Shown piece by piece: positions 110 to 50,129 of a stretch of DNA of 50,129 nucleotides. Made by a program: the position numbers and the translations under genes. Source of the stretch: Holophagaceae bacterium (GTDB lineage: Bacteria; Acidobacteriota; Holophagae; Holophagales; Holophagaceae); contig JAYVXV010000108.1 in the NCBI GenBank assembly GCA_043784905.1, positions 1-50,129 on the forward strand, written 5' to 3'. The notes under the pieces are model-generated. The model saw nothing but the letters and a program-made list of their open reading frames with translations. It made no database searches and was not told the origin of the DNA. How positions within the stretch are numbered: position 1 is the first letter of the stretch; every line of letters begins with the position of its first letter.

Positions 110-1561
110 ATGAAAACGCCCTCATCTATTTCCGTCTTTCTACTGATGTTGAGTCTCGTGGCGATGCCCGCATTCGCGCAGGTCCAACCTCTTGCCAAAC
201 CCATGGTTCCGAAGGGGAGCCTTGCGAATCTTCCAGATCCCAAAAGCCTCATCACTGGGAAACAAGAAGCCCGCGTCCCCGAAATTCAGCGATTTGAATT
301 GGCCAATGGTCTCAAGGTGTTGTACCTCCAGGACAAGACCGTGCCGGTGTTCAGCGGGGTGCTGGCCATGAAGGCCGGAGGTCTGGAAGATGCCAAAGAC
401 AAGGAGGGCCTTGCCTCGATGACCGCCAAGCTCCTGCGTGCCGGAGGCACCGATCGCGTTTTTTGGAGTCAGCAAGATGAGTCACTAGAATCTCGTGGCG
501 CCTCGGTGGAATTTCAAGCCACCAAGGAATACACCAGCGCTTCCATCCATTGTTTTGATCGCGATGCCGGAGTGGTTCTTGAACAGGTGGCGGGGATGTT
601 GGAAACACCCTCTTTCTACGCCCCCCGAGTGGAGTTCGTACGTGGACAGATGCTAGCGGACGTGAAGCAGGTAGAGGACCAGCCCATCCAGCTGGCCCTT
701 AGATCCTTTCAGGCCCTGCTATTTGAAGGAGGGTCCTTTGGGCGGTTTCCTACAGAAACGAGCTTGAAGGCCATCACCCATGAAGACATCACATCCTTCG
801 CCAAGACTTGGTATCACCCAGATCAGGCGGTATTGGCGGTGTCCTGCAGCCTAGACCTAGAATCAACCAAGAAGCTGCTCACGCAGGCCCTGGGGCAATG
901 GCGCCGAGGTACTGGCACTTCACCAGTGCGCGGTGCGCATAAATCCTGGGCCAAACCCGGCCTCTACCTGCGCCCCAAGACTGGTCTGACCCAAAGCACG
1001 GTACTCGCGGGAATGCCTTGGCTGCGTGAAGATGATCCCGATTCAGTGGCCCTGAACGCCGCCCTCAACGTCCTGGGTGAGAGTGGCCTTACCAGCCGTA
1101 TCTTCAACTCCGTGCGCACCCGCGAAGGCCTGGCTTATGCCGCCGGTAGCTTCCATCTCGATGCCGTCAGCACCGACGGGGCTTTCATGGCCTATGCCCT
1201 TACCAAAGCGGAGAGCACCGCCAAGGCCGCGACGCTGCTGAAAGCCGAAGTGGAACGCATGGTCAAAGATGGACTCACCCAAGAAGAACTGGATGACACC
1301 AAGCGATCCCTCTCCCAAAAGGCTCTCTTTGATAGCGTGACCACCGCCGATATCCTGGACCGCGCTGCGCAACTGGAACTGTTCGGTCGCCCCCAAGACA
1401 CCTACGTCAAGCGGCTGGAAAAGCTGCAGGCCCTCACCCTGGCGGAGGTCCACGGGGCAATTAAGCGCCACCTGAAATCCAGCGAGCTGCGCGTTTTCGC
1501 CCTCGCCGATCCCAAGGCCGCCCAACTGGATCAACTCGGCCCCGTGACCCAAGTGAAGTGA
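110..1561 (+). CDS. M16 (insulinase/pitrilysin) family peptidase-like protein, secreted, predicted non-catalytic
   Basis: 483-aa ORF with signal peptide MKTPSSISVFLLMLSLVAMPAFA and a two-lobed M16-like layout. Where the HxxEH zinc motif should be, it reads GLASMTAKLLRAGG. Confidence 0.8.
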   Translation: MKTPSSISVFLLMLSLVAMPAFAQVQPLAKPMVPKGSLANLPDPKSLITGKQEARVPEIQRFELANGLKVLYLQDKTVPVFSGVLAMKAGGLEDAKDKEGLASMTAKLLRAGGTDRVFWSQQDESLESRGASVEFQATKEYTSASIHCFDRDAGVVLEQVAGMLETPSFYAPRVEFVRGQMLADVKQVEDQPIQLALRSFQALLFEGGSFGRFPTETSLKAITHEDITSFAKTWYHPDQAVLAVSCSLDLESTKKLLTQALGQWRRGTGTSPVRGAHKSWAKPGLYLRPKTGLTQSTVLAGMPWLREDDPDSVALNAALNVLGESGLTSRIFNSVRTREGLAYAAGSFHLDAVSTDGAFMAYALTKAESTAKAATLLKAEVERMVKDGLTQEELDDTKRSLSQKALFDSVTTADILDRAAQLELFGRPQDTYVKRLEKLQALTLAEVHGAIKRHLKSSELRVFALADPKAAQLDQLGPVTQVK

Positions 1562-1574
1562 GACCGGGTTGCAC

Positions 1575-1719
1575 TCGAAAAGATAAAAAGAACCTGGAAC
1601 CACAGATTCCGCAGATGATACAGGTTTGCATTCAAAAAAATCCAAATTCACCCCCCAAGATTCCTCGGCTTTGAATCTGCGTAAATCTGCGGAATCTGCG
1701 GTTTCTTTTGTCATTTTGA
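1575..1719. repeat. Word-arm palindromic intergenic element (words CCRCAGAT / ATCTGCGG)
   Basis: The left arm tcgaaaagataaaaagaacctggaaccacagattccgcagatgatacagg (1575-1623) is the imperfect reverse complement of the right arm gaatctgcgtaaatctgcggaatctgcggtttcttttgtcattttga (1673-1719). It lies between convergent stops at 1561 and 1733. Confidence 0.75.
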
Positions 1720-1732
1720 ACCCGATTTGGCA

Positions 1733-3814
1733 CTAGCTGATCGCCGGGCGCTTGGGCAGATCCAGACTGAACCTGCTGCCTTGGGCCAGAGGTTTGAAAA
1801 AGGCCTCGCCCCCATGGTCTTCGGCGGTCTTGCGAACGATGGCGAGGCCGAGCCCCGAACCCCTTTCTTTGGTGGAAAAGCTGGGTTCAAACAGATGGTC
1901 CCGATGAGCTTCTGCAACACCTGAGCCATCGTCTTCTACGAAAATGCGCACGTTTCCATTGCGCTCGGTCAGGCCCACTCGAATGGTTCCACGGCCCCCG
2001 GTCGCGGCCACCGCGTTGTCCACCAGATTGATGAGCGCGCCCTTCACCATGTCGCCATCCCAATGGACCGAAACCGCATGCTCCGGAATCTCCCAGGCCC
2101 AGCGGATATCGGGGTGCGTGGGCCCGTACAGCGCCTTGGCTTGACGCATCAGATCACATGCGTCCAGATCCGTGGGATGGGGCGCGGGCAGGCGGGCGAA
2201 TCGGCTGAAGGCATCCACGAGCCGCGTCAGGCTGGCGACTTCCGTAAGGATGGCTTCGGCGCCCTGCTGCACAATTTCTCCGTCCAGGCGATTTTCCTTC
2301 ACGCGCCGCAGGAGCCGCTGGGCCGTGAGTTGGATGGGGGTCAGGGGATTCTTTACCTCGTGAGCCATGCGCCGTGCGACCTCTTGCCAAGCGGCACGTT
2401 TTTCAGCCTGCGCCAACAGGGAGAGATCCTCCAGCACCGCCAGGGCGCCGCCGCCCACTGGCATCGTCGCGCCGCCCACCACCAGCGGCGCTACGATGGC
2501 ACGCACGAGACGACTCTCGCCTTCGCCGCCCAGGCGCATTTCCTCTTGCTGGATGCGACCGGTCCCACGGGCTAGCGTGAGGAGCTGCGGGAGCCGCCCT
2601 AGCCGGGGCTGTCTCTCCAACTCCGTCCATGCATCGTGATTCGGATCAAAGGATTCGAGGCCAAGCCATCTTCGCGCTGCTGGATTCACCAGGCGCAATT
2701 GCCCAGCGTTGTCCCAACTCAGGACGCCCACGGGCAAGGCTTCCAGCAGCTGTCCCAAATAGGCGCGCTGTTGATCCAACCGCGCGCTCTGCGCTTCGAT
2801 GGCGGCGCGATTGGCTTTCAAATCGGAGGTCATGCGATTAAAGGTGCGCGCCAAAAAAGCCAGTTCGTCCTCGCCTTCTTCAGGCAGCTGCACGTCGAGA
2901 TCCCCGGTGCCCACGCGCTGAGCGGCTTTGGCCAAGGCGCGGATGGGCTCCGAAAGGGTCCTGGCGATGGCGAGGCCGGTCCACACCGCCGCGAAAAGCG
3001 TAAGCACCGTGAGAAATAAAAAAGTGCTTTGCGGCAGTGTTTCGAGCACGCCACGGGTCTGACTCACCTGGATGGATTCCGCAGAGCGCTTCTCCAATCG
3101 CAGCATCCCATCGGCCACCACGCGGGGCACGAAGACGCCCGCCACCACGCGGTTTCCATTGCGATCCAGAGCCTTCATGAACCATTGGCCTTCCTCGGAT
3201 TCCAATGATGAAACGGTTGAATCAGGGCTTCCGGCCAACGCGATCAGCGGAGTCTTGAGGCTCTTGGTTATGGACGTTATTTCCCCCGACATTAGAAGGT
3301 CCAGGCCCTCGGTCTGTCGTAGACTTTCCAGCTCCGTCAAATCTGCGGTCCGCAGGTGAAGCACCGAAACTTCAAGTCTTGCACTCACCTGCGCATGAAA
3401 TGCTTTTGCAGTGGCTTGGCCATCTTCAATGATCTCCCGCGTTTCGGGTCGGAACCATCGGTCCAGGTTCTTGGTGATGGCGCTTTGGCCTACGAAGAAA
3501 AGAATCAGGCTTGGTACGAGCGTCACGCCGAAAAAGGCCAGCACCAGGCGCGTTCGCAACCGCGCGCCAAGAATCCCACGGCGGCGCTCGAAGTAGAGCT
3601 TGGCCAGGGACCGCGCCACGATAAACAGTAGGATGCCGATGGCAAGCACGTTTAGAAGGCCCAAGGAAACCAGCGCCCAGCGCGAAGGCGCGTCAATGCC
3701 CCCGCTCACCTTGTCGCTCAGCAGCTTGTAGGCCTTGAAGATCATCCACACCAACACCGCGAGGCCCGCCGCAGCGTAGAGCCGCGTCAGCTCGCGGTCG
3801 CGTTGGAGGGTCAC
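1733..3814 (-). CDS. Sensor histidine kinase, NtrY-like (TM-HAMP-PAS-HisKA-HATPase)
   Basis: 693-aa ORF with N-terminal TM segments, a HAMP-like linker (GDLDVQLPEEGEDELAFLARTFNRM) and the H-box MAHEVKNPLTPI. The C-terminal ATPase boxes are NLVDNAV and GSGLGLAIV. No response regulator gene is adjacent. Confidence 0.85.
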   Translation of the reverse strand: MTLQRDRELTRLYAAAGLAVLVWMIFKAYKLLSDKVSGGIDAPSRWALVSLGLLNVLAIGILLFIVARSLAKLYFERRRGILGARLRTRLVLAFFGVTLVPSLILFFVGQSAITKNLDRWFRPETREIIEDGQATAKAFHAQVSARLEVSVLHLRTADLTELESLRQTEGLDLLMSGEITSITKSLKTPLIALAGSPDSTVSSLESEEGQWFMKALDRNGNRVVAGVFVPRVVADGMLRLEKRSAESIQVSQTRGVLETLPQSTFLFLTVLTLFAAVWTGLAIARTLSEPIRALAKAAQRVGTGDLDVQLPEEGEDELAFLARTFNRMTSDLKANRAAIEAQSARLDQQRAYLGQLLEALPVGVLSWDNAGQLRLVNPAARRWLGLESFDPNHDAWTELERQPRLGRLPQLLTLARGTGRIQQEEMRLGGEGESRLVRAIVAPLVVGGATMPVGGGALAVLEDLSLLAQAEKRAAWQEVARRMAHEVKNPLTPIQLTAQRLLRRVKENRLDGEIVQQGAEAILTEVASLTRLVDAFSRFARLPAPHPTDLDACDLMRQAKALYGPTHPDIRWAWEIPEHAVSVHWDGDMVKGALINLVDNAVAATGGRGTIRVGLTERNGNVRIFVEDDGSGVAEAHRDHLFEPSFSTKERGSGLGLAIVRKTAEDHGGEAFFKPLAQGSRFSLDLPKRPAIS

Positions 3815-5002: not shown

Positions 5003-5064
5003 TGAGGTACGAGGCGTGAGGTATGAGGGGTGAGGAAGCATCATCCGAGAGTATCGCCTCATCC
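5003..5064. repeat. Word-arm element, weak copy (words GAGGTAYGAGG)
   Basis: The left arm tgaggtacgaggcgtgaggtatgaggggtgagg (5003-5035) nearly matches the reverse complement of the right arm of the 20543-20617 copy. Only a short complementary right arm, cgcctcatcc (5055-5064), is present. Confidence 0.45.
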
Positions 5065-6430: not shown

Positions 6431-8887
6431 TTGACCAAGCTCGTCATCGTCGAAAGCCCCTCGAAGGCCAAAACCATCACCAAGTACCTGGGCAAGGGCT
6501 ACACGGTGAAGGCCTCCGTGGGCCATATCCGGGATCTGCCTAAAAAGTTGGGCGTGGACATCGAAAACGGGTTTCAAGAAGAGTATGAAATCAGCCCCGC
6601 CAAAGCCAAGGTGGTGGCGGAGTTGCGAGCTGCGGCCAAAGGCGCTGATGAGCTCATTCTCGCGACCGACCCCGACCGCGAAGGGGAGGCCATTTCCTGG
6701 CATTTATTAGAGGCCATCAAACCGCCCAAATCCCTGCCCGTGTCGCGAGTTCTTTTCAACGAAATTACCCCTGCGGGTATCCAAAAAGCCATGGCCAATC
6801 CCACGGTCATCAATAAGAAGTTAGTGGACGCCCAAAGGGCCCGCCGGGTGCTGGATCGTTTGGTGGGCTACAAGGTCAGCCAGGTGCTCTGGGACAAAGT
6901 ACGGCGCGGGCTCTCCGCTGGCCGTGTGCAGAGTGTCGCGGCGCGGCTCATCGTGGATCGCGAGCGGGAAATCCTAGCTTTCAATCCGGTGGAATTTTGG
7001 GTACTCAAGGCGAAATTCGCCGCCAAGCTGCCGCCGCACTTTTGGATGCGATTGGTGAAGCTCAGCGGTCAGGCGCTTCAGCTTGGCAACAAGGAAACCA
7101 AACGCCGCGTGGAAAACGAAAAGCAGGCCCACAACCTGCGTGACCAGATCTTGAAAGCCCCGTGGAAAGTGACGGGACTTGAAACCAAAGAGAAAAAACG
7201 CAATCCAGCACCGCCGTTCACCACGGCGCGTTTGCAGCAGGAAGCCGCGCAGAAGCTCAAGATGAGCGTCAGCCGAACCATGCAGAACGCTCAAAAGCTC
7301 TACGAGGGCATGGATTTCGGCGAAGGTCCGATTGGTCTCATTACCTACATGAGAACGGACTCTCCGCGCCTTGCTCCCGAAGCCATTGAGGCCACCCGCG
7401 AGTTCATCGCCAAGAAATTCGGCAAAGAGTATTTGCCCGCCAAGGCCCGGATCTACAGTGGCAAAGCGGGCGCCCAGGACGCTCATGAGGCCATCCGACC
7501 CACGGACATGACCCGCACGCCGGAATCCCTGCGCACCCATTTAGAGCCCGATCATTTCAGGCTCTATGCGCTGATCTGGCGGCGCACCATGGCCTCTCAG
7601 ATGGAGGCCGCGCGCTTCGACGAAACCGTCGTTGCTGCCGCAACGGCATTGGACAATGGCGAAGAAGCCATGTTTGAAGCCAAGGGTGAGATCGAACGGT
7701 TTCCGGGTTGGTTGGCGGTCTACCGTGCGGACGCGACGGAACAAAAGGCCGAAGCCATCGCAGACGCCACGAAGACCGAGGGAGAAGAGGAAGAAGAAAA
7801 CATCGGCCTGCCCCCGTTGGAGCTGGGCGAAACCCTGAACCTCGAAACCCTTGAAACCGATCAGCAATTCACCAAACCCCCCGCTCGCTTTAACGAAGGC
7901 ACTTTGGTGAAAGAGTTGGAAGAGGATGGCATTGGCCGCCCCTCCACCTACGCCAGCATCATCTCCACGATTCAAGACCGTGACTACGTCAAAAAGCATG
8001 AAGGACGCTTTAAACCGACTGAACTGGGCATGGTGGTCACAGACCTACTTGTGCAGGGCTTTCCAGAGCTGATGGACCCTAAATATACCAGCGGTCTCGA
8101 AGCGAATCTGGATCGGGTGGAGGAGGGCGCCATTACCTTTCTGAAGGCCATGAAGGATTTTTATGGACCCTTTGAAACGGCACTGGCCAACGCGGGCAAA
8201 GACATGCAGAACCTCAAGGCCGGAGTGCCCTCCGGCGAGCGTTGTCCAAAGTGTTCAGCGCCGCTATTGAAGCGCATCGGAAAGAATGGGCTCTTCATCG
8301 GGTGTTCAAACTATTCCACCGAGGTGAAGTGCGACTACACCGCCGAAGTCGAGGCCATGGATGAACCCGAGGACGCGCCGGAATGTCCACTCTGCGGCTC
8401 CACACCCATGTCCCTCCGCAAAGGACAATGGGGGCCTTTTTGGGCCTGCACTAATTATCCAAAATGCAAAGGTATCCGTAAGGCTGACCCCAAAGGCATC
8501 CCCATTCCTGCGGACGTTCCCATTGGCGAGAAATGCCCCACCTGCGGCAAGGATTTCGTCAAGCGACATGGGCGTTACGGCGAATTCATCTGCTGCGTGG
8601 ACTATCCCACCTGCAAGACCGTGAAGAAGGAAATCCTGGGCATTCCTTGTCCTAAGGATGGTGGTGATCTGAGTCCCCGCAAGACTCGCTTCGGAAAGAT
8701 TTTCTATGGCTGTACCAACTATCCTAAATGTGACTTTACTGCCTGGGACAAACCTGTGGCTCGCACCTGCCCCAAATGCAAGAGTCCCTATATGACCGAA
8801 AAGCAACGCAAGCCCCGTGGCAAGGATCCCATCATGGTCCTGCTCTGCCCCAACCCAGCCTGCAAGTATGAAGAGCCCATGGGATGA
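6431..8887 (+). CDS. topA: DNA topoisomerase I
   Basis: TTG start with GGAG at 6421-6424. TOPRIM N-terminus KLVIVESPSKAKTITKYLG. 818 aa with a C-terminal series of zinc-ribbon repeats (CPKCSA..GCSNY, CPLCGS..CTNYPKC, CPTCGK..CVDYPTC, CPKCKS..CPNPAC). Confidence 0.95.
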   Translation: MTKLVIVESPSKAKTITKYLGKGYTVKASVGHIRDLPKKLGVDIENGFQEEYEISPAKAKVVAELRAAAKGADELILATDPDREGEAISWHLLEAIKPPKSLPVSRVLFNEITPAGIQKAMANPTVINKKLVDAQRARRVLDRLVGYKVSQVLWDKVRRGLSAGRVQSVAARLIVDREREILAFNPVEFWVLKAKFAAKLPPHFWMRLVKLSGQALQLGNKETKRRVENEKQAHNLRDQILKAPWKVTGLETKEKKRNPAPPFTTARLQQEAAQKLKMSVSRTMQNAQKLYEGMDFGEGPIGLITYMRTDSPRLAPEAIEATREFIAKKFGKEYLPAKARIYSGKAGAQDAHEAIRPTDMTRTPESLRTHLEPDHFRLYALIWRRTMASQMEAARFDETVVAAATALDNGEEAMFEAKGEIERFPGWLAVYRADATEQKAEAIADATKTEGEEEEENIGLPPLELGETLNLETLETDQQFTKPPARFNEGTLVKELEEDGIGRPSTYASIISTIQDRDYVKKHEGRFKPTELGMVVTDLLVQGFPELMDPKYTSGLEANLDRVEEGAITFLKAMKDFYGPFETALANAGKDMQNLKAGVPSGERCPKCSAPLLKRIGKNGLFIGCSNYSTEVKCDYTAEVEAMDEPEDAPECPLCGSTPMSLRKGQWGPFWACTNYPKCKGIRKADPKGIPIPADVPIGEKCPTCGKDFVKRHGRYGEFICCVDYPTCKTVKKEILGIPCPKDGGDLSPRKTRFGKIFYGCTNYPKCDFTAWDKPVARTCPKCKSPYMTEKQRKPRGKDPIMVLLCPNPACKYEEPMG

Positions 8888-13957: not shown

Positions 13958-14149
13958 GCTGGATTTCCGGTTGTGCTCAAAGAAAAGGTTTCGGGCATCA
14001 GACGTCAGGCCTCGTTGCTGTGGGTCGCTTCGCATATTTGCAGTACGGAATGCCCCATTCAAAACCAACAATGAAGCCCGAGACCTGAAGGCAGTTGAAA
14101 GGGGATGCAACCGCAAAATCCGAGTTAGCGACCCCGAATTTTCGTCCCC

Positions 14150-15868: not shown

Positions 15869-15907
15869 TTCAAAAAGATCAAAAGAAACCGCAGATGACG
15901 CAGACCC
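15869..15907. repeat. Word-arm element, one-armed or truncated copy
   Basis: The sequence ttcaaaaagatcaaaagaaaccgcagatgacgcagaccc matches the left termini at 1575 and 33366 (TTCAAAAAGATAAAA..CCRCAGAT). No clear right arm is present. Confidence 0.4.
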
Positions 15908-15934
15908 ACGGAGTTGAAAAACCGCGAAGCGGGA

Positions 15935-20542: not shown

Positions 20543-20617
20543 GTGAGGTGGTGAGGGATGAGGTACGAGGAAGCACCATTGCGTGCTCGTACCTCATAAC
20601 TCACCCCTCGTACCTCA
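20543..20617. repeat. Word-arm palindromic element (words GAGGTACGAGG / CCTCGTACCTC)
   Basis: Left arm gtgaggtggtgagggatgaggtacgagg (20543-20570), 15-nt core, right arm ctcgtacctcataactcacccctcgtacctca (20586-20617). The right arm ends on the stop codon of the heptose kinase gene (20615-20617). Confidence 0.75.
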
Positions 20618-21832: not shown

Positions 21833-21935
21833 CTTAGGAGCCGTTAGAAAATAACCAGTACTTTTCTGGGTATGTTGTTACGGCCCCTTCTGCCGGACCG
21901 CCATCGCAATGACAAAGTTATTTTGATACAACGGC
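21833..21935 (-). repeat. 104-bp direct repeat, copy 1 (leader upstream of the Trm112-like gene)
   Basis: Aligns to 24159-24262 with 8 mismatches and 1 indel. It ends 32 nt upstream of the ATG at 21801 and starts 16 nt after the sigma gene stop. Confidence 0.85.
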
Positions 21936-24158: not shown

Positions 24159-24262
24159 CTTAGGAGTCGTTACGAAATAACCAGTACTTTTCTGGGTATT
24201 TTGTTACGGCCCCTTATGCCGGACCGTCATTGCAATGACAAAGTCAATTTTGATACAACGGC
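24159..24262 (-). repeat. 104-bp direct repeat, copy 2 (leader upstream of the Rieske gene)
   Basis: About 91% identical to 21833-21935. It ends 21 nt upstream of the ATG at 24138. Its distal 19 nt encode the last residues (PLYQN) and the stop codon of the metallophosphoesterase. It contains a perfect 14-bp palindrome, gtcattgcaatgac (24226-24239). Confidence 0.85.
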
Positions 24263-28829: not shown

Positions 28830-29284
28830 AGCCCGCCGTAAAACTCTGGATGCCCGTCGTCGCGCTGGTGCTGGCCATGAGCCCTCTGGTGGTGGTCCAC
28901 CCGCTGCACCTTTCGGGTCGCAGCATGGAGCCCACGCTGCGGAATGGGGAACTGCGTTGGGTGCTGCAAACGTGGTGCGCGAGCCCTCCCCAGCGAGGAG
29001 AAGTGTGGATTGTGGAGAGCCCCGATGGCGTTTCCATCAAGCGGGTGGTGGGCCTGCCCCGGGATCATGTGGAATCCAAAGATGGAGAAATCTTCATCAA
29101 CGGATTGCGTTTAGATGAATCCTACGTGCAGCGCGGCGATCATTGGAACGGCGTCTGGGACTGCGGGAATGGCTATCTCGCTTTAGGCGACAATCGCCCC
29201 GAAAGCCACGACGGACGGGCCTGGGGGGCGCTTCCGAGGTCCGCGTTTCGGGGCCGCGTGCTGGGTCTTCATACCAGGTTGTGA
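28826..29284 (+). CDS. lepB: Signal peptidase I (S26)
   Basis: Catalytic Ser box SGRSMEPTL, Lys box IKRVVGLPRD, and GDNRPESHDGR. GTG start overlapping the upstream stop (GTGA). Confidence 0.8.
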   Translation: MKPAVKLWMPVVALVLAMSPLVVVHPLHLSGRSMEPTLRNGELRWVLQTWCASPPQRGEVWIVESPDGVSIKRVVGLPRDHVESKDGEIFINGLRLDESYVQRGDHWNGVWDCGNGYLALGDNRPESHDGRAWGALPRSAFRGRVLGLHTRL

Positions 29285-29288
29285 TCAG

Positions 29289-29640
29289 AAAAATATTTCA
29301 CCACAGAGGACACCGAGAACTGCAAAACAGGTGTGACGCATTCCCCAATGCTGATACCTAGAAGAGACCCATCATGCCATCTTCGCGGACGAAATTCAGG
29401 CGGCCCGGCGGCGGCCTCACGCCTTGGTGCCCAAGGGTATAAAGGGCCCTAACTGAACCGCCAGAAAAACACTGGTGATTCACCAAGGGCCCCTAATGTG
29501 GTCCGCGTCGGACCACCTGAATTTGGGGGTCTTCGACCCGCAAGCGCTCTGCGCCTCGCGAAGCGATTTCGAGATGAAATCGTGGATGATGGAGCTTCGT
29601 GTTTTCTTGGTGTCTTCGTGTCTTGGTGGTGAGTTTTTAT
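29289..29640 (-). repeat. Word-arm palindromic element, long form with conserved core (core 29364-29573, minus orientation)
   Basis: The ends aaaaatatttcaccacagaggacaccgagaactgc (29289-29323) and gcttcgtgttttcttggtgtcttcgtgtcttggtggtgagtttttat (to 29640) are an imperfect inverted repeat. The core aligns in reverse complement with 33435-33577 and 46805-46870. The element overlaps the M61 stop codon (29637-29639). Confidence 0.85.
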
Positions 29641-31523
29641 TTCACGACCTTTGGCGTGTCTTCGCGGTGTTTGGCGGTCAGGATTTCAGATAAGCGATCC
29701 ACGGTTCCATCCATGCGAATCAAGCGTGGGTAACGTTCTCCGCCGTGGTAATCCACTTTGGACGTCTTGATGAAGGACCCGTTTTCGGTGATGAGATCAA
29801 TGGGTGCGGAAGACATTTTAGAATCTTTGAGAGCCTGATGAAGGCCATCGGTGGACCATTTGCGTCCGTTCACCGCGATGACTTTCATGCCGGGAACGAG
29901 GCCCGCCTCGGCTGCGGGAGAGCCCGACAGCACATCGTTAATGGCGCCTTCGGCGCTTAGAAAAAGGCCAATGGAATAGCTGACATCTGCACTTTTATTG
30001 TTGGTTTCCCGAGCCTTCCACAAATCGGTGGGCTCCTCGGAGTAGGCCAGTTTCCATCCACCCCGCTCGATGCCGCCCATGGGGGCGTGGGCCCCTTTGG
30101 AATCGAGCCGCAATCGAAGAAATGCTGCCCAATTATTGGGCACGACTTGGTTGAGGGCCATCACGATGTCATCAAACGTGTAGGGCTTCAGCACGGGAGA
30201 ACCACTGGGGGCGCCGTGAAAGGCTTGGCAGAAGGTATCCAAAGACTTCTGATTTTTTGTCAGCTCCCGGATGGTGGTGTCCACATCGAGCCAGATGAGT
30301 TGGCCTTCGGGGTAGAAGTCCACGCCGCGCCTTGCTGAAGCCCCGGCGCCGGACGCGTTGTAGAGGATTTGCGCTTCATCGCAGGTGTCCTGCAAGGGGC
30401 GCCAGGTGCGGCCCGGTTCGGTGTCAAGGGCGGCGGCGACCATGGCTAAATCATCACGGTAATCCTGCGCCGTCCATAGGCCGCTTCGAGCGGTGAGGAC
30501 TGAGCCCAAGTATTGTGTCAGGCCTTCGTAAACCCACAGCAGATCACCTTTCATGGGTGTATCAAAGTTGCCGGTAGCCAACCCAGAAGGCCGCCGAAAC
30601 TTTCCGTTCCAGCTATGGACCATCTCGTGGGGCAGAAGGCCCGATGTGGTCTTCAAAAGGCTTGGATCAATGAGTGAACGCTCGGAGGTACGGTCGTCAC
30701 TGCTCTCGTGGTGCTCCAATCCAAAATGCGCAACGTTGTCACTTAGCGTGTAAAGAAAATCGTAATGGTTGTAGTGCCGCGCACCGAAGAGATCGCCACT
30801 TTCAGCCACGAGATTTTTGTAGTGCTGGAGGGTCCCCGGCGTCATGGCCAGGGCCTCGGCGCTATCCGCCGCGAGGTCCAGATGATGGGCGCGACCCATG
30901 CTCATGCCGAGATCAATTTGTTTGAAATGGGCACCTGCCAGGATGGGAGAATCCACCAGGGTGGTGAGGCTGATGGCCTTGAACGTGAAAGTGCTGCCGA
31001 CGTGGCCGCTCCCTTCCAGCGCCGTTCCGAAGGCCCAACCGTCGGGCAATTTCAGGCTGGCTTCATAGCGGAGGTCGTCGCTTTGCGAGCCCTTGGGATA
31101 GAACAGGACCTGGTTCCAGCTCAGCACCGCGAGTTTTTCCGACATCGAAGAGCCTGCGGAAAATCCGCCCGCCGCCGCTGGCGACAAGAAATCCAGGCTC
31201 ACCTCAACGGCGCTCGCGCCCGGTGGAACCTCAAGGTGGATGGCGTACATATCCACAAGATCACGCCGCCACGACAGCGCCTTTCCATTGGCGTTGAAAT
31301 GGAGATTCACCAAATCCGTGATGGGTCCTGAAGGACCGTGCTCGCCAGGAATCCATTGCGGGTAGAGCAGCGTCAAAGGCCCAGCCTTGGCGGGGATGGC
31401 GAGTTTGGCGTGGAGGATGTGCCGGGGCGCGTCCGTGGCGTCCAGGGCAATCGTGATGGGGGCCTTGGTCGCTTGGGCACCTAGGACCAAGCTGAGGGAA
31501 AGTCCAAAAAATAAGCGATGCAT
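29637..31523 (-). CDS. M61 family glycyl aminopeptidase with C-terminal PDZ domain, secreted
   Basis: HExxH motif HEMVHSWNGK, PDZ-like AGLVPGMKVIAVNGRKW, signal peptide MHRLFFGLSLSLVLGAQA. The ATG at 31521-31523 is preceded by GGAGG. Confidence 0.85.
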   Translation of the reverse strand: MHRLFFGLSLSLVLGAQATKAPITIALDATDAPRHILHAKLAIPAKAGPLTLLYPQWIPGEHGPSGPITDLVNLHFNANGKALSWRRDLVDMYAIHLEVPPGASAVEVSLDFLSPAAAGGFSAGSSMSEKLAVLSWNQVLFYPKGSQSDDLRYEASLKLPDGWAFGTALEGSGHVGSTFTFKAISLTTLVDSPILAGAHFKQIDLGMSMGRAHHLDLAADSAEALAMTPGTLQHYKNLVAESGDLFGARHYNHYDFLYTLSDNVAHFGLEHHESSDDRTSERSLIDPSLLKTTSGLLPHEMVHSWNGKFRRPSGLATGNFDTPMKGDLLWVYEGLTQYLGSVLTARSGLWTAQDYRDDLAMVAAALDTEPGRTWRPLQDTCDEAQILYNASGAGASARRGVDFYPEGQLIWLDVDTTIRELTKNQKSLDTFCQAFHGAPSGSPVLKPYTFDDIVMALNQVVPNNWAAFLRLRLDSKGAHAPMGGIERGGWKLAYSEEPTDLWKARETNNKSADVSYSIGLFLSAEGAINDVLSGSPAAEAGLVPGMKVIAVNGRKWSTDGLHQALKDSKMSSAPIDLITENGSFIKTSKVDYHGGERYPRLIRMDGTVDRLSEILTAKHREDTPKVVK

Positions 31524-33193: not shown

Positions 33194-33244
33194 CTCAGCA
33201 TTTCAGATGGGCACAGCCGTGAGAAAATGCGTTCTATTTTTTTT

Positions 33245-33360
33245 AAAACTCACCACCAGGGCACAAAGGCGGCGCAGACCGGGTGCATGCGAGGTGATGC
33301 TCAACATCGCGGAATGCGCTCGTATTCATTCATGAGTTCTCGGTGTCTCGAGGTGATACC
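33245..33360. repeat. Word-arm element related to the termini of the 29289-29640 copy
   Basis: aaaactcaccaccagggcacaaagg (33245-) matches aaaactcaccaccaagacacgaag, the reverse complement of 29611-29634. gttctcggtgtctcgaggtga (33336-) matches gttctcggtgtcctctgtggtga, the reverse complement of 29298-29320. The core of about 65 nt is different. Confidence 0.5.
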
Positions 33361-33365
33361 AAGTC

Positions 33366-33699
33366 GCGTTCAAAAAGATAAAATGAATCCACAGATGAAC
33401 ACAGATTCACACAGATGCAATTTCGTGATCCCGTCCCGAAATTGCTTCGCGAGGCGCGTAGCGACTGCGGGTCAAAAACCCGCAAATTCAGGGGGTCCGG
33501 CGCGGATCACACCAGGGCGTGAGGCCGACGCCGGACCCCCTGAATTTCATCCGCGAAGCTGGCGTGTGACGGGTCTCAAATACCGCGCCATCAGTGGCGA
33601 TAGGGCGAGGTACTTTGCATCTGTGTAATCTGTGTAATCTGTGTAATCTGTGTAATCTGCGGAATCTGCGGAATCTGTGGTTCCTATTCTTTTGAACGC
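33366..33699 (+). repeat. Word-arm palindromic element, long form with conserved core (core 33435-33577)
   Basis: The left arm gcgttcaaaaagataaaatgaatccacagatgaacacagattcacacagatgc and a right arm (33617-33699) ending ggaatctgtggttcctattcttttgaacgc are inverted. The core holds a perfect 19-bp stem (33484-33502 / 33529-33547). Confidence 0.85.
33619..33680. repeat. Tandem 9-mer array (ATCTGTGTA x4, ATCTGCGGA x2, ATCTGTGG)
   Basis: Direct reading gives 6.9 head-to-tail copies with period 9. The array forms the right arm of the element above. Confidence 0.9.
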
Positions 33700-33833
33700 G
33701 AATCCGTATGAGTCCATTATTGGGAACGCAAAACCGTATCATCCCCCGCGGGGTTTTCTCATGCGGATGAACAGCGCAAAGGGCGAGATGAGCAGCGCGG
33801 CGGTCAAGACAATGAGCAATAATTTCCCGACCA

Positions 33834-40705: not shown

Positions 40706-41664
40706 CTTCCGCTCTCACGGCTTCCGTCAGCCCTCCAGCCATTGATCGCCATGTTCATCTTGAAGGTGGAATGGATCCGGCATGGGTGCGGAGTCAAGCT
40801 GGGCGGATCGGCCAAGTTGTGCCTGAGTCCCTAGAAGCGCTGTGGCTGCGTGAGGCAAGGCCCTTTGAAGATTTCATCGAGGCCTTTCTGTTTGGCTCGA
40901 AATTCCTTTGTGATCACAAGGCTGTGCGCGCCGCGATGGGCGCCATCATGGCGCGCTTGCCAGAATCATCTGATGGACCACGGGGCCTAGACCTATGGGT
41001 ATCGCCGTTTTTTCTGGTGTGCTTCAAAAACCTGCTTAGCCTTGAAGCGCTGTGGCGCGGGATCGAGGATGGCATCGGGGATGGGCGCCAGCAGGGCGTT
41101 TCCGTGGCCGTGGTGATAGACGCTGTGAATCATTTGGGCCCTGAGCATGGTCACGAGGTGCTCGATTTGGTACTGGGTGATTTGCCAAATTTCGTTGTGG
41201 GTTTTTCCACCGGGGGCCTCGAACGTGTGCCTTTCCGGGAATGGGCACCCGTCTTTGATCGAGCGCGGGAATCTGGACTGCGCATCGCGGCCCATGCGGG
41301 CGAGAATGGCCCTGGCGAAAATGTCCGCGAAGCCATCCTCGAAGGCGGTGTGGATCGCATCGTCCATGGCGTTCACGCCGCTTCAGACCCGAGCATCCTC
41401 GATCTTTTGGCGGAGCGGCGGATCCCGGTGGATGTTTGCCCTAGTTCCAACCGGGCCCTTGTGCCCAATTTGGGGACGCACCCCTTGCCAGTCATGCTCC
41501 GGGCTGGCCTCCGCTGCGCCCTGGGCACGGATGATCCGGGCCTCATCCCTTGCGATCTCACCTCCGAATGGCGATTGGCTCAGGCCATGGGGTTGAATGC
41601 GGGAGAGTTGGAGGCCTTGAGGCGATTCTCAGTGGAAGACGCATGGTGCTTGAGGAAGCCTTGA
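40702..41664 (+). CDS. add: Adenosine/adenine deaminase family protein
   Basis: Metal and catalytic motifs IDRHVHLEGG, AHAGE, DRIVHGVH and LGTDDPG. GTG start overlapping the upstream stop (GTGA). Confidence 0.8.
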   Translation: MTSALTASVSPPAIDRHVHLEGGMDPAWVRSQAGRIGQVVPESLEALWLREARPFEDFIEAFLFGSKFLCDHKAVRAAMGAIMARLPESSDGPRGLDLWVSPFFLVCFKNLLSLEALWRGIEDGIGDGRQQGVSVAVVIDAVNHLGPEHGHEVLDLVLGDLPNFVVGFSTGGLERVPFREWAPVFDRARESGLRIAAHAGENGPGENVREAILEGGVDRIVHGVHAASDPSILDLLAERRIPVDVCPSSNRALVPNLGTHPLPVMLRAGLRCALGTDDPGLIPCDLTSEWRLAQAMGLNAGELEALRRFSVEDAWCLRKP

Positions 41665-43697: not shown

Positions 43698-43728
43698 AAA
43701 AAAGGGCGCTGTGGGCGCCCTTTTTTTC
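43698..43728 (+). terminator. Intrinsic terminator of tig
   Basis: The sequence aaaaaa-gggcgc-tgtgg-gcgccc-ttttttt has its stem at 43704-43709 / 43715-43720 and a 7-T tract. Confidence 0.75.
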
Positions 43729-43729
43729 T

Positions 43730-43943
43730 GGCCTCGGGCATCAGGCTTCATACGACTTTGCTTTCAATGAATTAGAACCACAGAGACACAGAGGGCACAG
43801 AGAGAGCCGTCATGTGCCTCTGTGGTGAATTTAATCTATTGAACGCGAATGGGTATCAGTCATCGTTGTTGGTTTTGGATGGGCCATCTGGCACGCCAGA
43901 TATGCGAAGCGACCGACATCAACGAAGCCTGATGCCCGAGGCC
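43730..43943. repeat. Nested palindrome: perfect 20-bp inverted repeat enclosing a short word-arm element
   Basis: ggcctcgggcatcaggcttc (43730-43749) and its exact reverse complement gaagcctgatgcccgaggcc (43924-43943) flank the element. Inside it, gaaccacagagacacagagggcacagagag (43775-43804) pairs with tgcctctgtggtgaatttaatctattgaacgcgaat (43815-43850). Confidence 0.8.
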
Positions 43944-43951
43944 TGAGTCCC

Positions 43952-44350
43952 TTACCTCAGATCTTCCTCACGCACCACCACACCATCCTGAAGAATTCGA
44001 TATCCAAGGGGCCGATCATGGGTGGGCACGACGGCCTCGAAAATGGAGTGGGCCGCTGTCATTCCGGGCTGACCGGGCATCGCCGCCTGTTCGGTGGTGG
44101 CCTTGCAGGGGACTTTGAGTACCCTTCCTTCCTTGAACAGAAATTCCATGGAGAAATGGATCACTTCCTCCTTCTGCCAGATGTATGGGTCGGAGTCGGT
44201 GAAGCGCATCAAGGTGCGGGCCTGCTCGCCATACTCTTCTCGGCGGAGCCGGACGCTTTTCCCAGTGCCCGTGATGGGGATGGGATGTTTGCATGCGACA
44301 CCGAGGCCCGTGAAAAGGCAGATAAAAAGAAGGGCAGTCTTGGGTTTCAT
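43952..44350 (-). CDS. Hypothetical lipoprotein
   Basis: Signal peptide plus lipobox [20 protein letters not shown]. 132 aa from the ATG at 44348-44350. No family is recognised. Confidence 0.55.
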
Positions 44351-46717: not shown

Positions 46718-46733
46718 TGGCCCGTCTCGCTCT

Positions 46734-46920
46734 CAAGATAAAGATCACCACCACGGCACGAAGGGCACCAAGAAAACACGAAGCTCCATCACCCATGCTT
46801 CCGGCCCGAAATCGCTTCGCGAGGCGCCTGCGGGCCACCTGAATTTCATCCGCGAAGCTAGCACGTGACGACTTCCTTCGTGGCCTTGGTGTCCTTCGAG
46901 TCTTCGTGGTGAGTTTTTAT
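46734..46920 (+). repeat. Word-arm palindromic element, short form of the conserved core (core 46805-46870)
   Basis: The left arm ..atcaccaccacggcacgaagggcaccaagaaaacacgaagctccatcaccc is over 85% identical to the reverse complement of 29582-29634. The right arm is ccttcgtggccttggtgtccttcgagtcttcgtggtgagtttttat. Confidence 0.85.
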
Positions 46921-46954
46921 CCTTTAGAATGCCGATTCATACGACATCGAATGA

Positions 46955-46993
46955 TAAAAAATGAGCCCGTCTCTCGGCGGGCTCATTTTTTTT
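46955..46993. terminator. Bidirectional intrinsic terminator (recQ / lipoprotein gene)
   Basis: The sequence aaaaaa-atgagcccg-tctctcgg-cgggctcat-ttttttt has a perfect 9-bp stem at 46961-46969 / 46978-46986. Confidence 0.75.
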
Positions 46994-47625: not shown

Positions 47626-50129
47626 TCAAAAACCGGTTAGGAAGATTGTAAGGTCAGCGTCGTCCACGGTGCCGTCTGCATTGAGATCAGTGGCGGAATC
47701 GCTGGAGCCGTAGGCCTTGGCCATCAGAGCGAGATCCAGCACATCCACAGCTCCATCGCCGTTGAGATCCTTGGTTTTGGCGCCAATGACCGTGATGGTT
47801 TTGATGATGGTTTTGGTTAGGTCCGCGCTGGCGGTGGCCGTGATCGTAATGGACCCGGGCGTCGAAGGCGCGGTGAAGACAATAGTGGACGTCGTGGTGC
47901 CCGTGGGAATCCCGAGCGTGCCGCCACCGAGGCTGGTCCAGTTGACGGTTCCGGTATTGACCGTGCCGATGAGCGTCGCGGTCGCGCCGGTGAGGATGGT
48001 GCCCGTTGCCGGGTTCACGCTGACCGTAAAAGTTGTGACGGGTGGAACCACGGTCACGGTGGCCACACCGGATTTGCTGGTGTCCGAAGTGCTGGTGGCG
48101 CGCACGTGGTAGGTACCCCCAGCCGCTGGAGCCGTGTAGGCACCCGTTACAGAATTGACGGTGCCGCCGCCGATCTCATCCACGCTCCAGGAAACACCCG
48201 CGGGACCATTGGTGACGGTTGCGGTGAACCCTTGAGTTCCCGAGGGAGCCAAGCTCACCGTAGGGGGCGTGACGCTCACCGTAAGTACGGGAACGGTCGT
48301 GACCGTCACCGTAGCAGCCGAGAATTTCGTAATGTCCACGGTGCTCGTGGCACGAACATGGTAGGTGCCGGCCACAGCGGGAGCGGTGTAAAGACCTGTG
48401 CCATTCACGGTGCCGCCACCACCTTCGACCACGGACCAGGTGACGCCCGTGTTCGGGTTGCCCGTGACGGTGGAGGTGAACTGCTGGGTGGTGTTGGTCT
48501 GTAGTGAGGTAGTGGGTGGATTCACGGCCACCACCAAAGGCTGAACGTGAACCGTTGCGGTGGCGAATTGGGCGAGATCCGCTTGGGCCGTGGCCTTCAC
48601 GTGGTAGTCGCCGGGGGTCGCAGGCGCGGTATAGACGCCGAGTGCGGTGATGGATCCCCCACCGAGCTCCACTACGCTGTAGGTCGTGCCGCCCTGAGAG
48701 GGAGTGCCTACGAAGGTTTGGTTGCCATTGGGCTGCACGTAGGCCACGGTCGGCGTGATGCCGATGGTCACGGGCACCTGGATGCTCACCGCCGCATCTC
48801 CAAACTTGGTGTTGTCCGCCACGCTGGTGGCACGAACCACGGCGCTGCCGGCGGTGGCGGGCGCGGTGTAGAGGCCCGTGCCGTTGATGACGCCGCCCCC
48901 GCTGAAGACCGACCAGGTGACATTCGTATTCACCGTGTTGGCCACAGCGGCTGAGAATTGTTGAGTCTGGTTGGTGACCAGATTTGCGGGATTGGGGGAG
49001 ACGGTCACGGAAATGGGAATGGGAACCACCGTCACGGCCGCATCGGCAAATTTGGTGTTGTCGGCCACGCTGGTGGCGCGAACCACCGCGCTACCCGTGG
49101 CGCCGGGCGCGGTGTAAAGACCCGTGCCATTGACGCTTCCGGTGCCGCTGAACAGGGACCAGGTGACGGCGGTGTTCGTAGAGCCTGTCACCGTCGGGGT
49201 GAATTGCTGCGTGGTGCTCACGGGCACGTTCACTGGCGTGGGCGTGATGGAAACACTTACGGCTGGCACGCTCACCATGGTGGTACCCGTGCGGGTCGGG
49301 GCCGCGTTGCTGGTGGCGGTGACGGTGACGCTCAAGGGTGAGGCGGGCGGCGGAACCGGCGCGGTGTAGAGGCCAGCGCCGCTAATGGCGCCGCTTGTCG
49401 GGCCTGCAGGGCTGAGGCTCCAGGCGACGGTTTGATCGTTCAGGGGGAACGCAGTCCCTGAAGCCGTTACTGCGGCCGAAAAGGTCTGAGTGGCGCCCGA
49501 TTGAACATTGGTGGTGCCGCCGGGGGCTACGACGACATTCACGCTGGCGGGCGCCACCACGTCCATGAGCCTGGCAACGTTGGTCACGCCGTCCGCTTGG
49601 GCCGTGGCGGTGACGCTAATGCCATTCTGGGCCCCCGCCGGGGCGGTGAAATTGACCGAAGCGCCCGAAGCCACCGCGGCACCCGGAATGGATCCGGCGC
49701 TGGCGGTCCAAAGTAGGTTGGTATTCGGAGCTCCCGTCGAGGTCGCGATGAAGGGCTGTACCCCGTTGGTGACCATGGAGAGACTGGTCGCGGGGGACGT
49801 GATGGTCACGGTGGGAAGGCCCGAAGGCGTGTCCAGCTCCCACACGCCGCGTCCAAACGTTCCGATGCGGACAAAGGTGCCGTCCGGTGCGACATAGATG
49901 TCACGCACCGCCACCACCGGCAGGCCCGCGCCGTAGCGCGACCAGTTGGCACCACCATCGGCGGAGCGATACACGCCGAAATCGGTACCGGCCAGCAAGG
50001 TCTGGTTATTGGTCGGATCGTTCTGAATGCAGTGGACGGGAATCCCGCTGGGGAATCCCGTGCCCTCAAGGTGAGTCCAGTTGGCCCCGCTATCGGTGCT
50101 CTTCCAGAGATGCCGGACCGCCGCGAGGC
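47626..50129 (-). CDS. Large surface protein (5' partial): BNR/Asp-box propeller, about 8-9 Ig-like BIG2 repeats, C-terminal dockerin-like EF-hand pair
   Basis: The frame stays open to the window end (..WKSTDSGANWTHLEG..YRSADGGANWSRYG Asp-boxes). Repeats of about 80 aa carry the ..TQQF...V.WS....G.V...GLYTAP....Y.V.AT pattern. The tail is DLNGDGAVDVLDLALMAKAYG..DLNADGTVDDADLTIFLTGF. Confidence 0.8.
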   Translation of the reverse strand, partial: LAAVRHLWKSTDSGANWTHLEGTGFPSGIPVHCIQNDPTNNQTLLAGTDFGVYRSADGGANWSRYGAGLPVVAVRDIYVAPDGTFVRIGTFGRGVWELDTPSGLPTVTITSPATSLSMVTNGVQPFIATSTGAPNTNLLWTASAGSIPGAAVASGASVNFTAPAGAQNGISVTATAQADGVTNVARLMDVVAPASVNVVVAPGGTTNVQSGATQTFSAAVTASGTAFPLNDQTVAWSLSPAGPTSGAISGAGLYTAPVPPPASPLSVTVTATSNAAPTRTGTTMVSVPAVSVSITPTPVNVPVSTTQQFTPTVTGSTNTAVTWSLFSGTGSVNGTGLYTAPGATGSAVVRATSVADNTKFADAAVTVVPIPISVTVSPNPANLVTNQTQQFSAAVANTVNTNVTWSVFSGGGVINGTGLYTAPATAGSAVVRATSVADNTKFGDAAVSIQVPVTIGITPTVAYVQPNGNQTFVGTPSQGGTTYSVVELGGGSITALGVYTAPATPGDYHVKATAQADLAQFATATVHVQPLVVAVNPPTTSLQTNTTQQFTSTVTGNPNTGVTWSVVEGGGGTVNGTGLYTAPAVAGTYHVRATSTVDITKFSAATVTVTTVPVLTVSVTPPTVSLAPSGTQGFTATVTNGPAGVSWSVDEIGGGTVNSVTGAYTAPAAGGTYHVRATSTSDTSKSGVATVTVVPPVTTFTVSVNPATGTILTGATATLIGTVNTGTVNWTSLGGGTLGIPTGTTTSTIVFTAPSTPGSITITATASADLTKTIIKTITVIGAKTKDLNGDGAVDVLDLALMAKAYGSSDSATDLNADGTVDDADLTIFLTGF

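Follow-up and report, generated by a model that had tools for sequence, protein, structure and literature searches.

A Hairpin Core at the Apex of Long Intergenic Palindromes in a Holophagaceae Bacterium Probably Belongs to a Low-Copy Repeat Subfamily and Has No Consistent Strand Preference

Is a strongly folded core that recurs in intergenic DNA a strand-specific RNA, or is it part of a palindromic DNA repeat? The question arises in a chromosomal segment of 50,129 nt from a Holophagaceae bacterium (Acidobacteriota), which was analyzed as a whole and is referred to here as the window. The first-pass annotation had described a core common to three elements and offered two readings of it, a MITE whose fold is under selection and a structured RNA. 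The approximately 55 ORFs of the window with Pfam hits are all housekeeping genes, such as those for topoisomerase I, DprA, trigger factor, ClpP, RecQ, MurA, ETF-QO, and ribosomal protein L28, and no transposase, integrase, or RAYT (Y1 transposase) domain was found among them. The MurA protein shows 88-92% identity to metagenome proteins and 74-80% identity to proteins named Holophagaceae, Holophaga, or Geothrix.

Other repeats were also seen in the window. A 790-aa protein encoded at 47626-49998 (-) carries a dockerin type I domain at its C-terminus, its gene has internal DNA repeats of about 246 nt (48378-49393), and it is probably a secreted repeat protein. A 92-nt direct repeat (21833-21924 and 24159-24250, 90% identity) lies in two intergenic regions of a cluster with a PfkB kinase, a sigma/anti-sigma fusion, and a metallophosphoesterase, and has no Rfam match at the gathering score. 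A separate family of about 102 nt has two copies in inverted orientation (13984-14085 and 43852-43953, 75% complementary), each inside its own longer hairpin and adjoining a canonical terminator; for one of them the longer hairpin is formed by 43727-43749 and 43924-43946, which are 96% complementary.

The core is about 143 nt long and consists of an outer stem, P1, around the hairpins P2 and P3 and the long hairpin P4 (Table 1). Its two shared blocks, CCTGAATTTCRTCCGCGAAG (0.01 matches expected by chance) and GCTTCGCGAGGCGC, each occur exactly three times in the window, at the places and on the strands that the first-pass annotation had given. The minimum free energy (MFE) fold of 33430-33580 has -88.8 kcal/mol (z = -7.6 versus shuffles) and contains the outer stem that had been proposed from the shared blocks, as GCUUCGCG/CGCGAAGC around P2, P3, and P4. 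The perfect 19-bp stem reported within P4 was also found, the strands 33484-33502 and 33529-33547 being exact reverse complements at 19/19 positions. Some unpaired nucleotides are kept as well, namely, GAAAT on the 5' side of P1 and CATCC between P4 and P1. GTAG is confined to the P2 loop of three copies, and the other two have AGAG there. Searches with blastn and nhmmer found no further core copies in the window. A candidate remnant at 15922, the 9-mer CCGCGAAGC, was judged to be a chance match because the identical 9-mer is also present at 41325.

Table 1. Positions of the core copies, their helices, and the composite elements in the window
Feature	Position	Strand	Remarks
Core copy c33, full form	33435..33577	+	
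c33 outer stem P1	33444-33451 with 33552-33559	+	GCTTCGCG pairs with CGCGAAGC
c33 small hairpin P2	about 33452-33466	+	
c33 hairpin P3	33467-33483	+	
c33 long hairpin P4	33484-33505 with 33525-33547	+	
Core copy c29, long form	29364..29573	-	nested hairpin insert in the P4 apical loop
c29 nested hairpin insert	29430-29498		69 nt
Core copy c46, short form	46805..46870	+	internal deletion
c33 composite	33355..33712	.	
c33 composite, left terminal repeat	33355-33371		GATACCAAGTCGCGTTC
c33 composite, A-rich tract	33372-33388		
c33 composite, left arm	33389-33419		CACAGAT units
c33 composite, right arm	33616-33680		ATCTGTGTA units
c33 composite, T-rich tract	33681-33693		
c33 composite, right terminal repeat	33694-33712		GAACGCGAATCCGTATGAG
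Second partial end by c33 composite	33723-33744		
c29 composite	29268..29660	.	393 nt
c29 composite, end motifs	29268-29288 and 29643-29660		
c29 composite, arms	29299-29320 and 29594-29633		CACGAAG/CACCAAG units
c46 composite	46718..46945	.	
c46 composite, arms	46746-46784 and 46872-46913		CACGAAG/CACCAAG units, about 89% like c29 arms
c46 composite, right end motif	46927-46945		
Coreless relative of c33 composite	1560..1736	.	same ends, CGCAGAT arms
Coreless member	43776..43859	.	CACAGAG arms; end motif GAACGCGAATGGGTATCAG at 43841-43859

The other two window copies, c29 and c46, are a long and a short form of this architecture. c29 (z = -5.4 versus shuffles) has the architecture of c33 with a 69-nt insert at the apex of P4, which agrees with the expansion of about 70 nt noticed earlier; the insert folds by itself into a hairpin of -32 kcal/mol and has no second copy among the sequences examined. 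c46 was rightly described as an internal deletion. It has lost about 70-77 nt, including P2, P3, and the 5' strand of P4, and retains P1 and the 3' strand of P4. A GAGGC direct repeat marks both ends of the deletion (CGCGAGGC... and ...CGTGAGGC), which is the pattern that slippage across a hairpin would leave.

Three more core copies were recovered from metagenomes, which brings the total to six copies at six unrelated loci with different neighbor genes and from at least three sequence sources: the window, JGI sample Ga0315271 (loci L015 and L029), and Ga0376277 (L030). Two ENA contigs (L031 and L032) represent the L029 locus in other samples and are not extra loci. An exact-pattern scan of the metagenomes with CCTGAATTTCRTCCGCGAAG gave 12 hits, of which L015 was the sole true copy and the remainder were coincidences in coding sequence; the pattern was too strict and missed L029 and L030, which read ...AATTCC.... 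These two came from an exhaustive HMMER search of cluster representatives with the open +1-frame translation of the core, which hit the spurious ORFs P0121 and P0122; the DNA under these ORFs contains full cores. Another hit, P0123, is an unrelated repeat protein. The 10 hits of an exact scan of a genome collection with GAAATYGCTTCGCGAGGCGC were all due to chance, in unrelated taxa and without the second block. A protein word-index search gave no match with the core pseudo-peptide and only the self-match with P0121, and the plasmid, phage, and viral collections contained nothing similar.

Over 371 nt, the L032 sequence departs from L029 and L031 by only three substitutions, which all affect the first 20 nt of the core. 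With two of them L032 returns to the family consensus, in one case with the effect that a P1 pair is repaired; gene conversion from another copy may account for this. A 133-aa ORF without a Pfam domain (33227-33628, +) spans the core of c33, and its frame has been called as a gene in the metagenomes (P0121 and P0122, no domain). Such repeat-derived ORFs are likely to be false gene calls.

The recovered copies made it possible to examine the fold across the family in a six-sequence alignment (A4), on which the divergence and covariation figures are based. Pairwise divergence was 0.109 in paired columns versus 0.34 in unpaired columns inside the structure, about threefold lower in the stems. Four pairs have changed on both sides, one in P3 (UA to CG) and three in P4 (GC to AU; the series GC/CG/UA/UG; and UA to CG), and the covariation score of 0.081, versus 0.049 in shuffles, was reached by 0 of 500 shuffles. 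Pairing was destroyed when the 3' partners were slid out of register. Because of the lower stem divergence, the two-sided changes, and the covariation above that of shuffles, we conclude that the fold of the core is real and conserved.

Fold conservation does not separate RNA from DNA, since palindromic repeats need their hairpins in single-stranded DNA or in RNA. A single event of quasi-palindrome template-switch repair can yield changes that look "compensatory", and such changes are therefore no proof of selection on RNA. A strong fold with covariation is what a DNA palindrome produces, and should not be taken in annotation as evidence for a new RNA gene.

The strand argument of the first-pass annotation was that T/G changes in the P4 stem of c29 give G·U pairs only if the core is transcribed in its own orientation. 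The two changes do behave in this way, but the same stem also holds an A·C mismatch, which is a G·U pair on the opposite strand, and the argument built on them fails. Across the five full copies, P1-P4 contain 8 G·U versus 6 A·C cells, which go back to about 5-6 versus 5 independent events. The sense minus antisense MFE values of the six copies are +3.1, -0.1, +0.7, -2.2, -8.1, and +0.6 kcal/mol: the own strand is favored in c29 only (by about 8 kcal/mol), the difference is within about ±3 in the other five, and the antisense strand of c33 folds equally well as or slightly better than the sense strand. Because the G·U and A·C counts are near parity and the sense and antisense energies are about equal, there is no consistent strand signal, and neither orientation-specific G-U pairing nor a strand bias of the fold is found in the family. 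The strand asymmetry is a property of one copy, c29. A fold without strand preference points to an ordinary bacterial repeat rather than to a demonstrable RNA gene; the MITE option of the earlier alternative is close to the evidence, and the reading of the core as a strand-specific RNA is not supported.

Known RNA families and transcription signals gave a similar picture. In a scan of the window with Rfam 15, only two tRNAs passed the gathering score, and no family reached its threshold on the core, for which a search of Rfam had been suggested as a check. A BjrC68 match on the core, with 20 bits versus a threshold of 39, was absent from c29 and from the three metagenome copies and was regarded as noise. 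In none of the Rfam scans, among them those of the core regions at E values up to 10, did a ribozyme family (hammerhead, twister, and similar) give a match. Neither a sigma-70-like promoter near any of the core copies of the window nor a terminator specific to the core was found in them.

The surroundings of the core are more informative about its nature. Each core copy lies at the apex of a much longer hairpin, here called the composite, which fills the intergenic space. Composites are bounded by terminal inverted repeats of about 19 nt (consensus CTSATACCNAGTCGCGTTC). On the inner side of the left repeat is an A-rich tract, and the right repeat has a T-rich tract in the corresponding place; further inward are the arms, inverted arrays of degenerate 7-9-nt tandem units that form a long stem. 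The end motif GAACGCGACTTGGTATCAG of about 19 nt, or its complement, is present at both ends of the c33 composite; ends of this type are also found on the elements at 43.8 kb, 1.6 kb, L015, L029, and L030, and the ends of the c29 and c46 composites match it more weakly. The arms of c33 are built of CACAGAT units, those of c29 and c46 of CACGAAG/CACCAAG units, and those of the three metagenome copies of CGCCAAG units. The c29 and c46 composites have arms and core in common (two matches, 89% and 93%); L015, L029, and L030 have ends, CGCCAAG arms, and core in common, in one relative orientation; and the ends and arm type of c33 are those of the coreless elements at 1.6 kb and 43.8 kb. We therefore consider the composite to be the repeated unit, with the core as the mark of a subfamily. 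At least two arm types are found with the core: either the core has moved on its own, without the arms, or arm turnover is rapid. In the 1.6-kb element, the apex (1623-1660) carries a second left end of the CGCCAAG type (GGTTTGCATTCAAAAAAATCC...CACCCCCCAAGA), which matches the left ends of the L029 and L015 elements. This is a nesting of element in element, like that of the 69-nt insert in c29.

Intergenic hairpins with tandem-unit arms were seen at 1593-1710, 20545-20612, 43776-43830, 5003-5036, and 15885-15905 of the window and at other loci (L015:1786-1892; L029:1840-1943; L024:9395-9510; L023:936-1008), with units that differ per element (CGCAGAT, GAGGTAC, CACAGAG, CCCACAG, CACAAAG, GAGTCGA or GAGGTGA). 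Such hairpins occur in several Holophagaceae genomes. These host hairpins are a less ordinary feature than the core. Both arms keep matching while the unit changes, and their inverted arrays of varying 7-9-nt units may deserve separate study.

Stop codons of housekeeping genes, most of them in convergent pairs, border the stretches that the composites occupy, and none of the six copies contains an ORF with a Pfam domain. Convergent genes flank five of the six, and for L030 the contig does not extend to the upstream side; the orientation of the copies relative to genes is therefore uninformative. One orthologous site allowed a filled and an empty state to be compared. In the diverged relative L023 (GCA_025357545.1; 60-65% identity in the S26 and M61 proteins), the genes of an S26 signal peptidase and an M61 peptidase converge and overlap without a spacer, and in the window the same pair is separated by the c29 composite. 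The S26 protein is homologous up to ...RVLG, and the M61 protein up to ...AKHRE. Beyond these points, the genes run into the ends of the composite, from which the S26 peptidase gene takes its final 5 codons and its stop (29282-29284) and the M61 peptidase gene its final 7 codons and its stop (29637-29639); therefore, both proteins carry repeat-derived C-terminal tails. The junction has the signature of an insertion at overlapping 3' ends and, if the repeat reading is right, is a concrete case of gene 3' ends rewritten by repeats. It is the sole orthologous comparison because the other MurA neighborhoods are rearranged: those of L024-L028 have different neighbors and gave no further orthologous site.

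Downstream of murA, L023 carries another kind of repeat, about 85 nt long, in two copies (8057-8140 and 8210-8300; CCCCCTGACCACCCC..GATCGC...GTCCACCGGACTGTGCTCCCGCTCC...), with tRNA genes next, and synteny with the window breaks exactly at the position of the c33 composite.

Several properties of the composites are those of MITEs. They are noncoding and 230-393 nt in length, within the MITE size of less than about 600 bp, and the ORFs overlapping them have no Pfam domain; their terminal inverted repeats are conserved; and they are present at six unrelated loci, with one empty site in L023. No target-site duplication of fixed length was found in the flanks of the six composites: the flanking direct repeat GTCTTC occurs only at c29 and is absent from the equivalent boundaries of the other five. 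In the 50-kb window and beside the six copies, no transposase gene was found that could belong to an autonomous relative of the kind that the first-pass annotation had proposed to look for.

We consider it probable that the core is the central hairpin module of a non-autonomous palindromic intergenic repeat subfamily (MITE/ERIC-like) of the Holophagaceae. Composites come and go as complete units. Their apices take up additional hairpins, as seen from the 69-nt insert of c29 and the half-element of the 1.6-kb copy, and hairpins inside them are lost when the DNA between short direct repeats is deleted, as in c46. The copied unit would be the whole composite, with terminal inverted repeats, A- and T-rich tracts, tandem-unit arms, and the core in the center, and copies may be spread by a transposase or recombinase whose gene lies elsewhere. 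Insertion may be safe at the apex of a terminator-like hairpin, and nested insertions would survive there because the base of the stem and the T tract stay intact. Pairing would be kept if the hairpin matters on either strand, as single-stranded DNA or in a co-transcribed 3' UTR, and it may be re-established by template-switch repair as well; no RNA product of one particular strand would have to be assumed.

The position of the composites relative to transcription bears on what else the core might be. On each strand, the stem of a composite runs into a T-rich tract, such as TTCCTATTCTTTT at 33681-33693. The stems are imperfect and about 100 bp long, and a terminator scan reports only small sub-hairpins in them. 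This A-tract, stem, and T-tract anatomy appears to resemble a very long bidirectional terminator. Canonical terminators are found apart from the composites at 46956-46993 (bidirectional) and 43700-43727. c46 lies between the recQ stop codon and the former, and a small hairpin with a T tract (33741-33760) lies downstream of c33, so that the composites are probably co-transcribed as part of the 3' UTR.

Such an arrangement also agrees with the core being a cis-acting RNA structure in the 3' UTRs of convergent genes, where it would act with its host hairpin as a bidirectional terminator, a 3'-end stabilizer, or an RNase III/E site, with selection on both strands. This possibility is compatible with a repeat origin, and we regard it as unlikely. 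It would account for the A-rich tract, long stem, and T-rich tract on both strands, the location of five of the six copies between convergent genes directly after stop codons, and the presence of a T-tract terminator that, read along the strand of the upstream gene, comes after c33 and after c46. The conserved stems with compensatory changes are likewise consistent with it, and the balance of G·U and A·C fits the use of both strands. However, a terminator needs only the stem base and a U tract, so the core at the apex would be dispensable; the loss of most of the core in c46 and the extra 69 nt in c29 argue against a tight functional constraint; and the canonical terminators at 46956-46993 and 43700-43727 are separate from the composites.

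The palindromes inside palindromes could also be produced by a structure-directed process of this lineage that inserts hairpin modules into the apical loops of terminator-like hairpins, with arms generated by or co-evolving with the process and with GAAAT and CATCC recognized by an enzyme acting on single-stranded DNA. There are three layers of nesting, namely, the core in the tandem-armed hairpins, the 69-nt hairpin in the core apex, and the half-element in the 1.6-kb copy. Survivorship alone could explain the apical position of the nested inserts, and we think that a directed process is quite unlikely.

Subterminal hairpins without target-site duplications, the nesting in hairpin loops, and the conserved unpaired motifs beside the stems would be expected if the core or the composite were the decayed end of an IS or autonomous element of the IS200/IS605 or IS110 type, with the hairpins as recognition structures of the enzyme. 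We consider this origin very unlikely, as no transposase gene was found beside the six copies or in the 50-kb window, no similarity in the plasmid, phage, and viral collections, and no constant short sequence beside the left ends that would compare with the target tetranucleotide of IS200/IS605. An independent strand-specific small RNA gene is highly improbable: the 8 kcal/mol advantage of c29 on its own strand, the G·U pairs in P2 of L015, L029, L030, and c29, and the conserved unpaired GAAAT and CATCC speak for it, but the G·U and A·C counts (8 versus 6) and an MFE difference of about 0 in four of the six copies, the lack of a promoter or terminator of its own and of a recurring Rfam match in the scans above, the tolerance of large insertion and deletion variants, and the constant embedding of the core in a larger palindrome speak against it.

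If the core is the central module of a repeat subfamily, as we favor, a repeat family is added to the Acidobacteriota and Holophagaceae; in the literature on Holophaga/Geothrix and on MITEs of Acidobacteria, we found no description of interspersed repeats for the phylum. The family can be compared with several repeats of other bacteria. Like REP, BIME, and REPIN sequences, it is palindromic, intergenic, and biased to convergent genes, its hairpins are conserved with compensatory changes, and it is a target of nested insertion. IS1397 and ISKpn1, for instance, insert in the loops of REPs. REPs are described as 20-40 nt long, tagged with GTAG or CGTC at one end, and accompanied by a RAYT gene (PMC3733652). 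In contrast, the core has 143 nt and four helices, carries no GTAG or CGTC end tag, and has no Y1 transposase gene in the 50-kb window.

RNA hairpins of the Correia elements (CREE) of Neisseria are cut by RNase III. Defined target-site duplications are found both in Correia elements (TA) and in the Chunjie MITEs of Geobacter, and for both a parent IS is known or suspected; the composites show no consistent duplication, and the window yielded no parent for them. PMC3184786 describes Correia and Chunjie elements as non-autonomous elements of 100-235 bp with terminal inverted repeats, which insert near or into operons and are co-transcribed. SPRITE shares with the composites the terminator-like form and the bias towards convergent gene ends, but is a simple hairpin of about 105 nt with a T tract; the composites, from another phylum, are 230-390 nt in length and have variable tandem-unit arms and a multi-hairpin center.

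The ERIC (IRU) sequences of the Enterobacteriaceae, imperfect palindromes of about 127 bp that are classed as MITEs, offer a further comparison. ERIC and the core are intergenic imperfect palindromes of about 130-140 nt at the 3' ends of genes and are co-transcribed, which for the core is deduced from its position. ERIC variants reportedly include internal deletions and insertions of about 70 bp at an internal site, and the core likewise has standard, internally deleted, and about 70-bp-inserted forms. However, ERIC has no sequence similarity to the core, its terminal repeats are flanked by TA whereas the composites have no consistent duplication, the core is embedded in a larger hairpin with tandem-repeat arms, and the copy number of the composites is so far low. 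An effect of ERIC at the RNA level, on mRNA stability, is reported in PMC3184786. These closest known families are functional analogues of the core, not homologues, and the repeat family to which the core belongs is best described as a new, low-copy family of a known kind.
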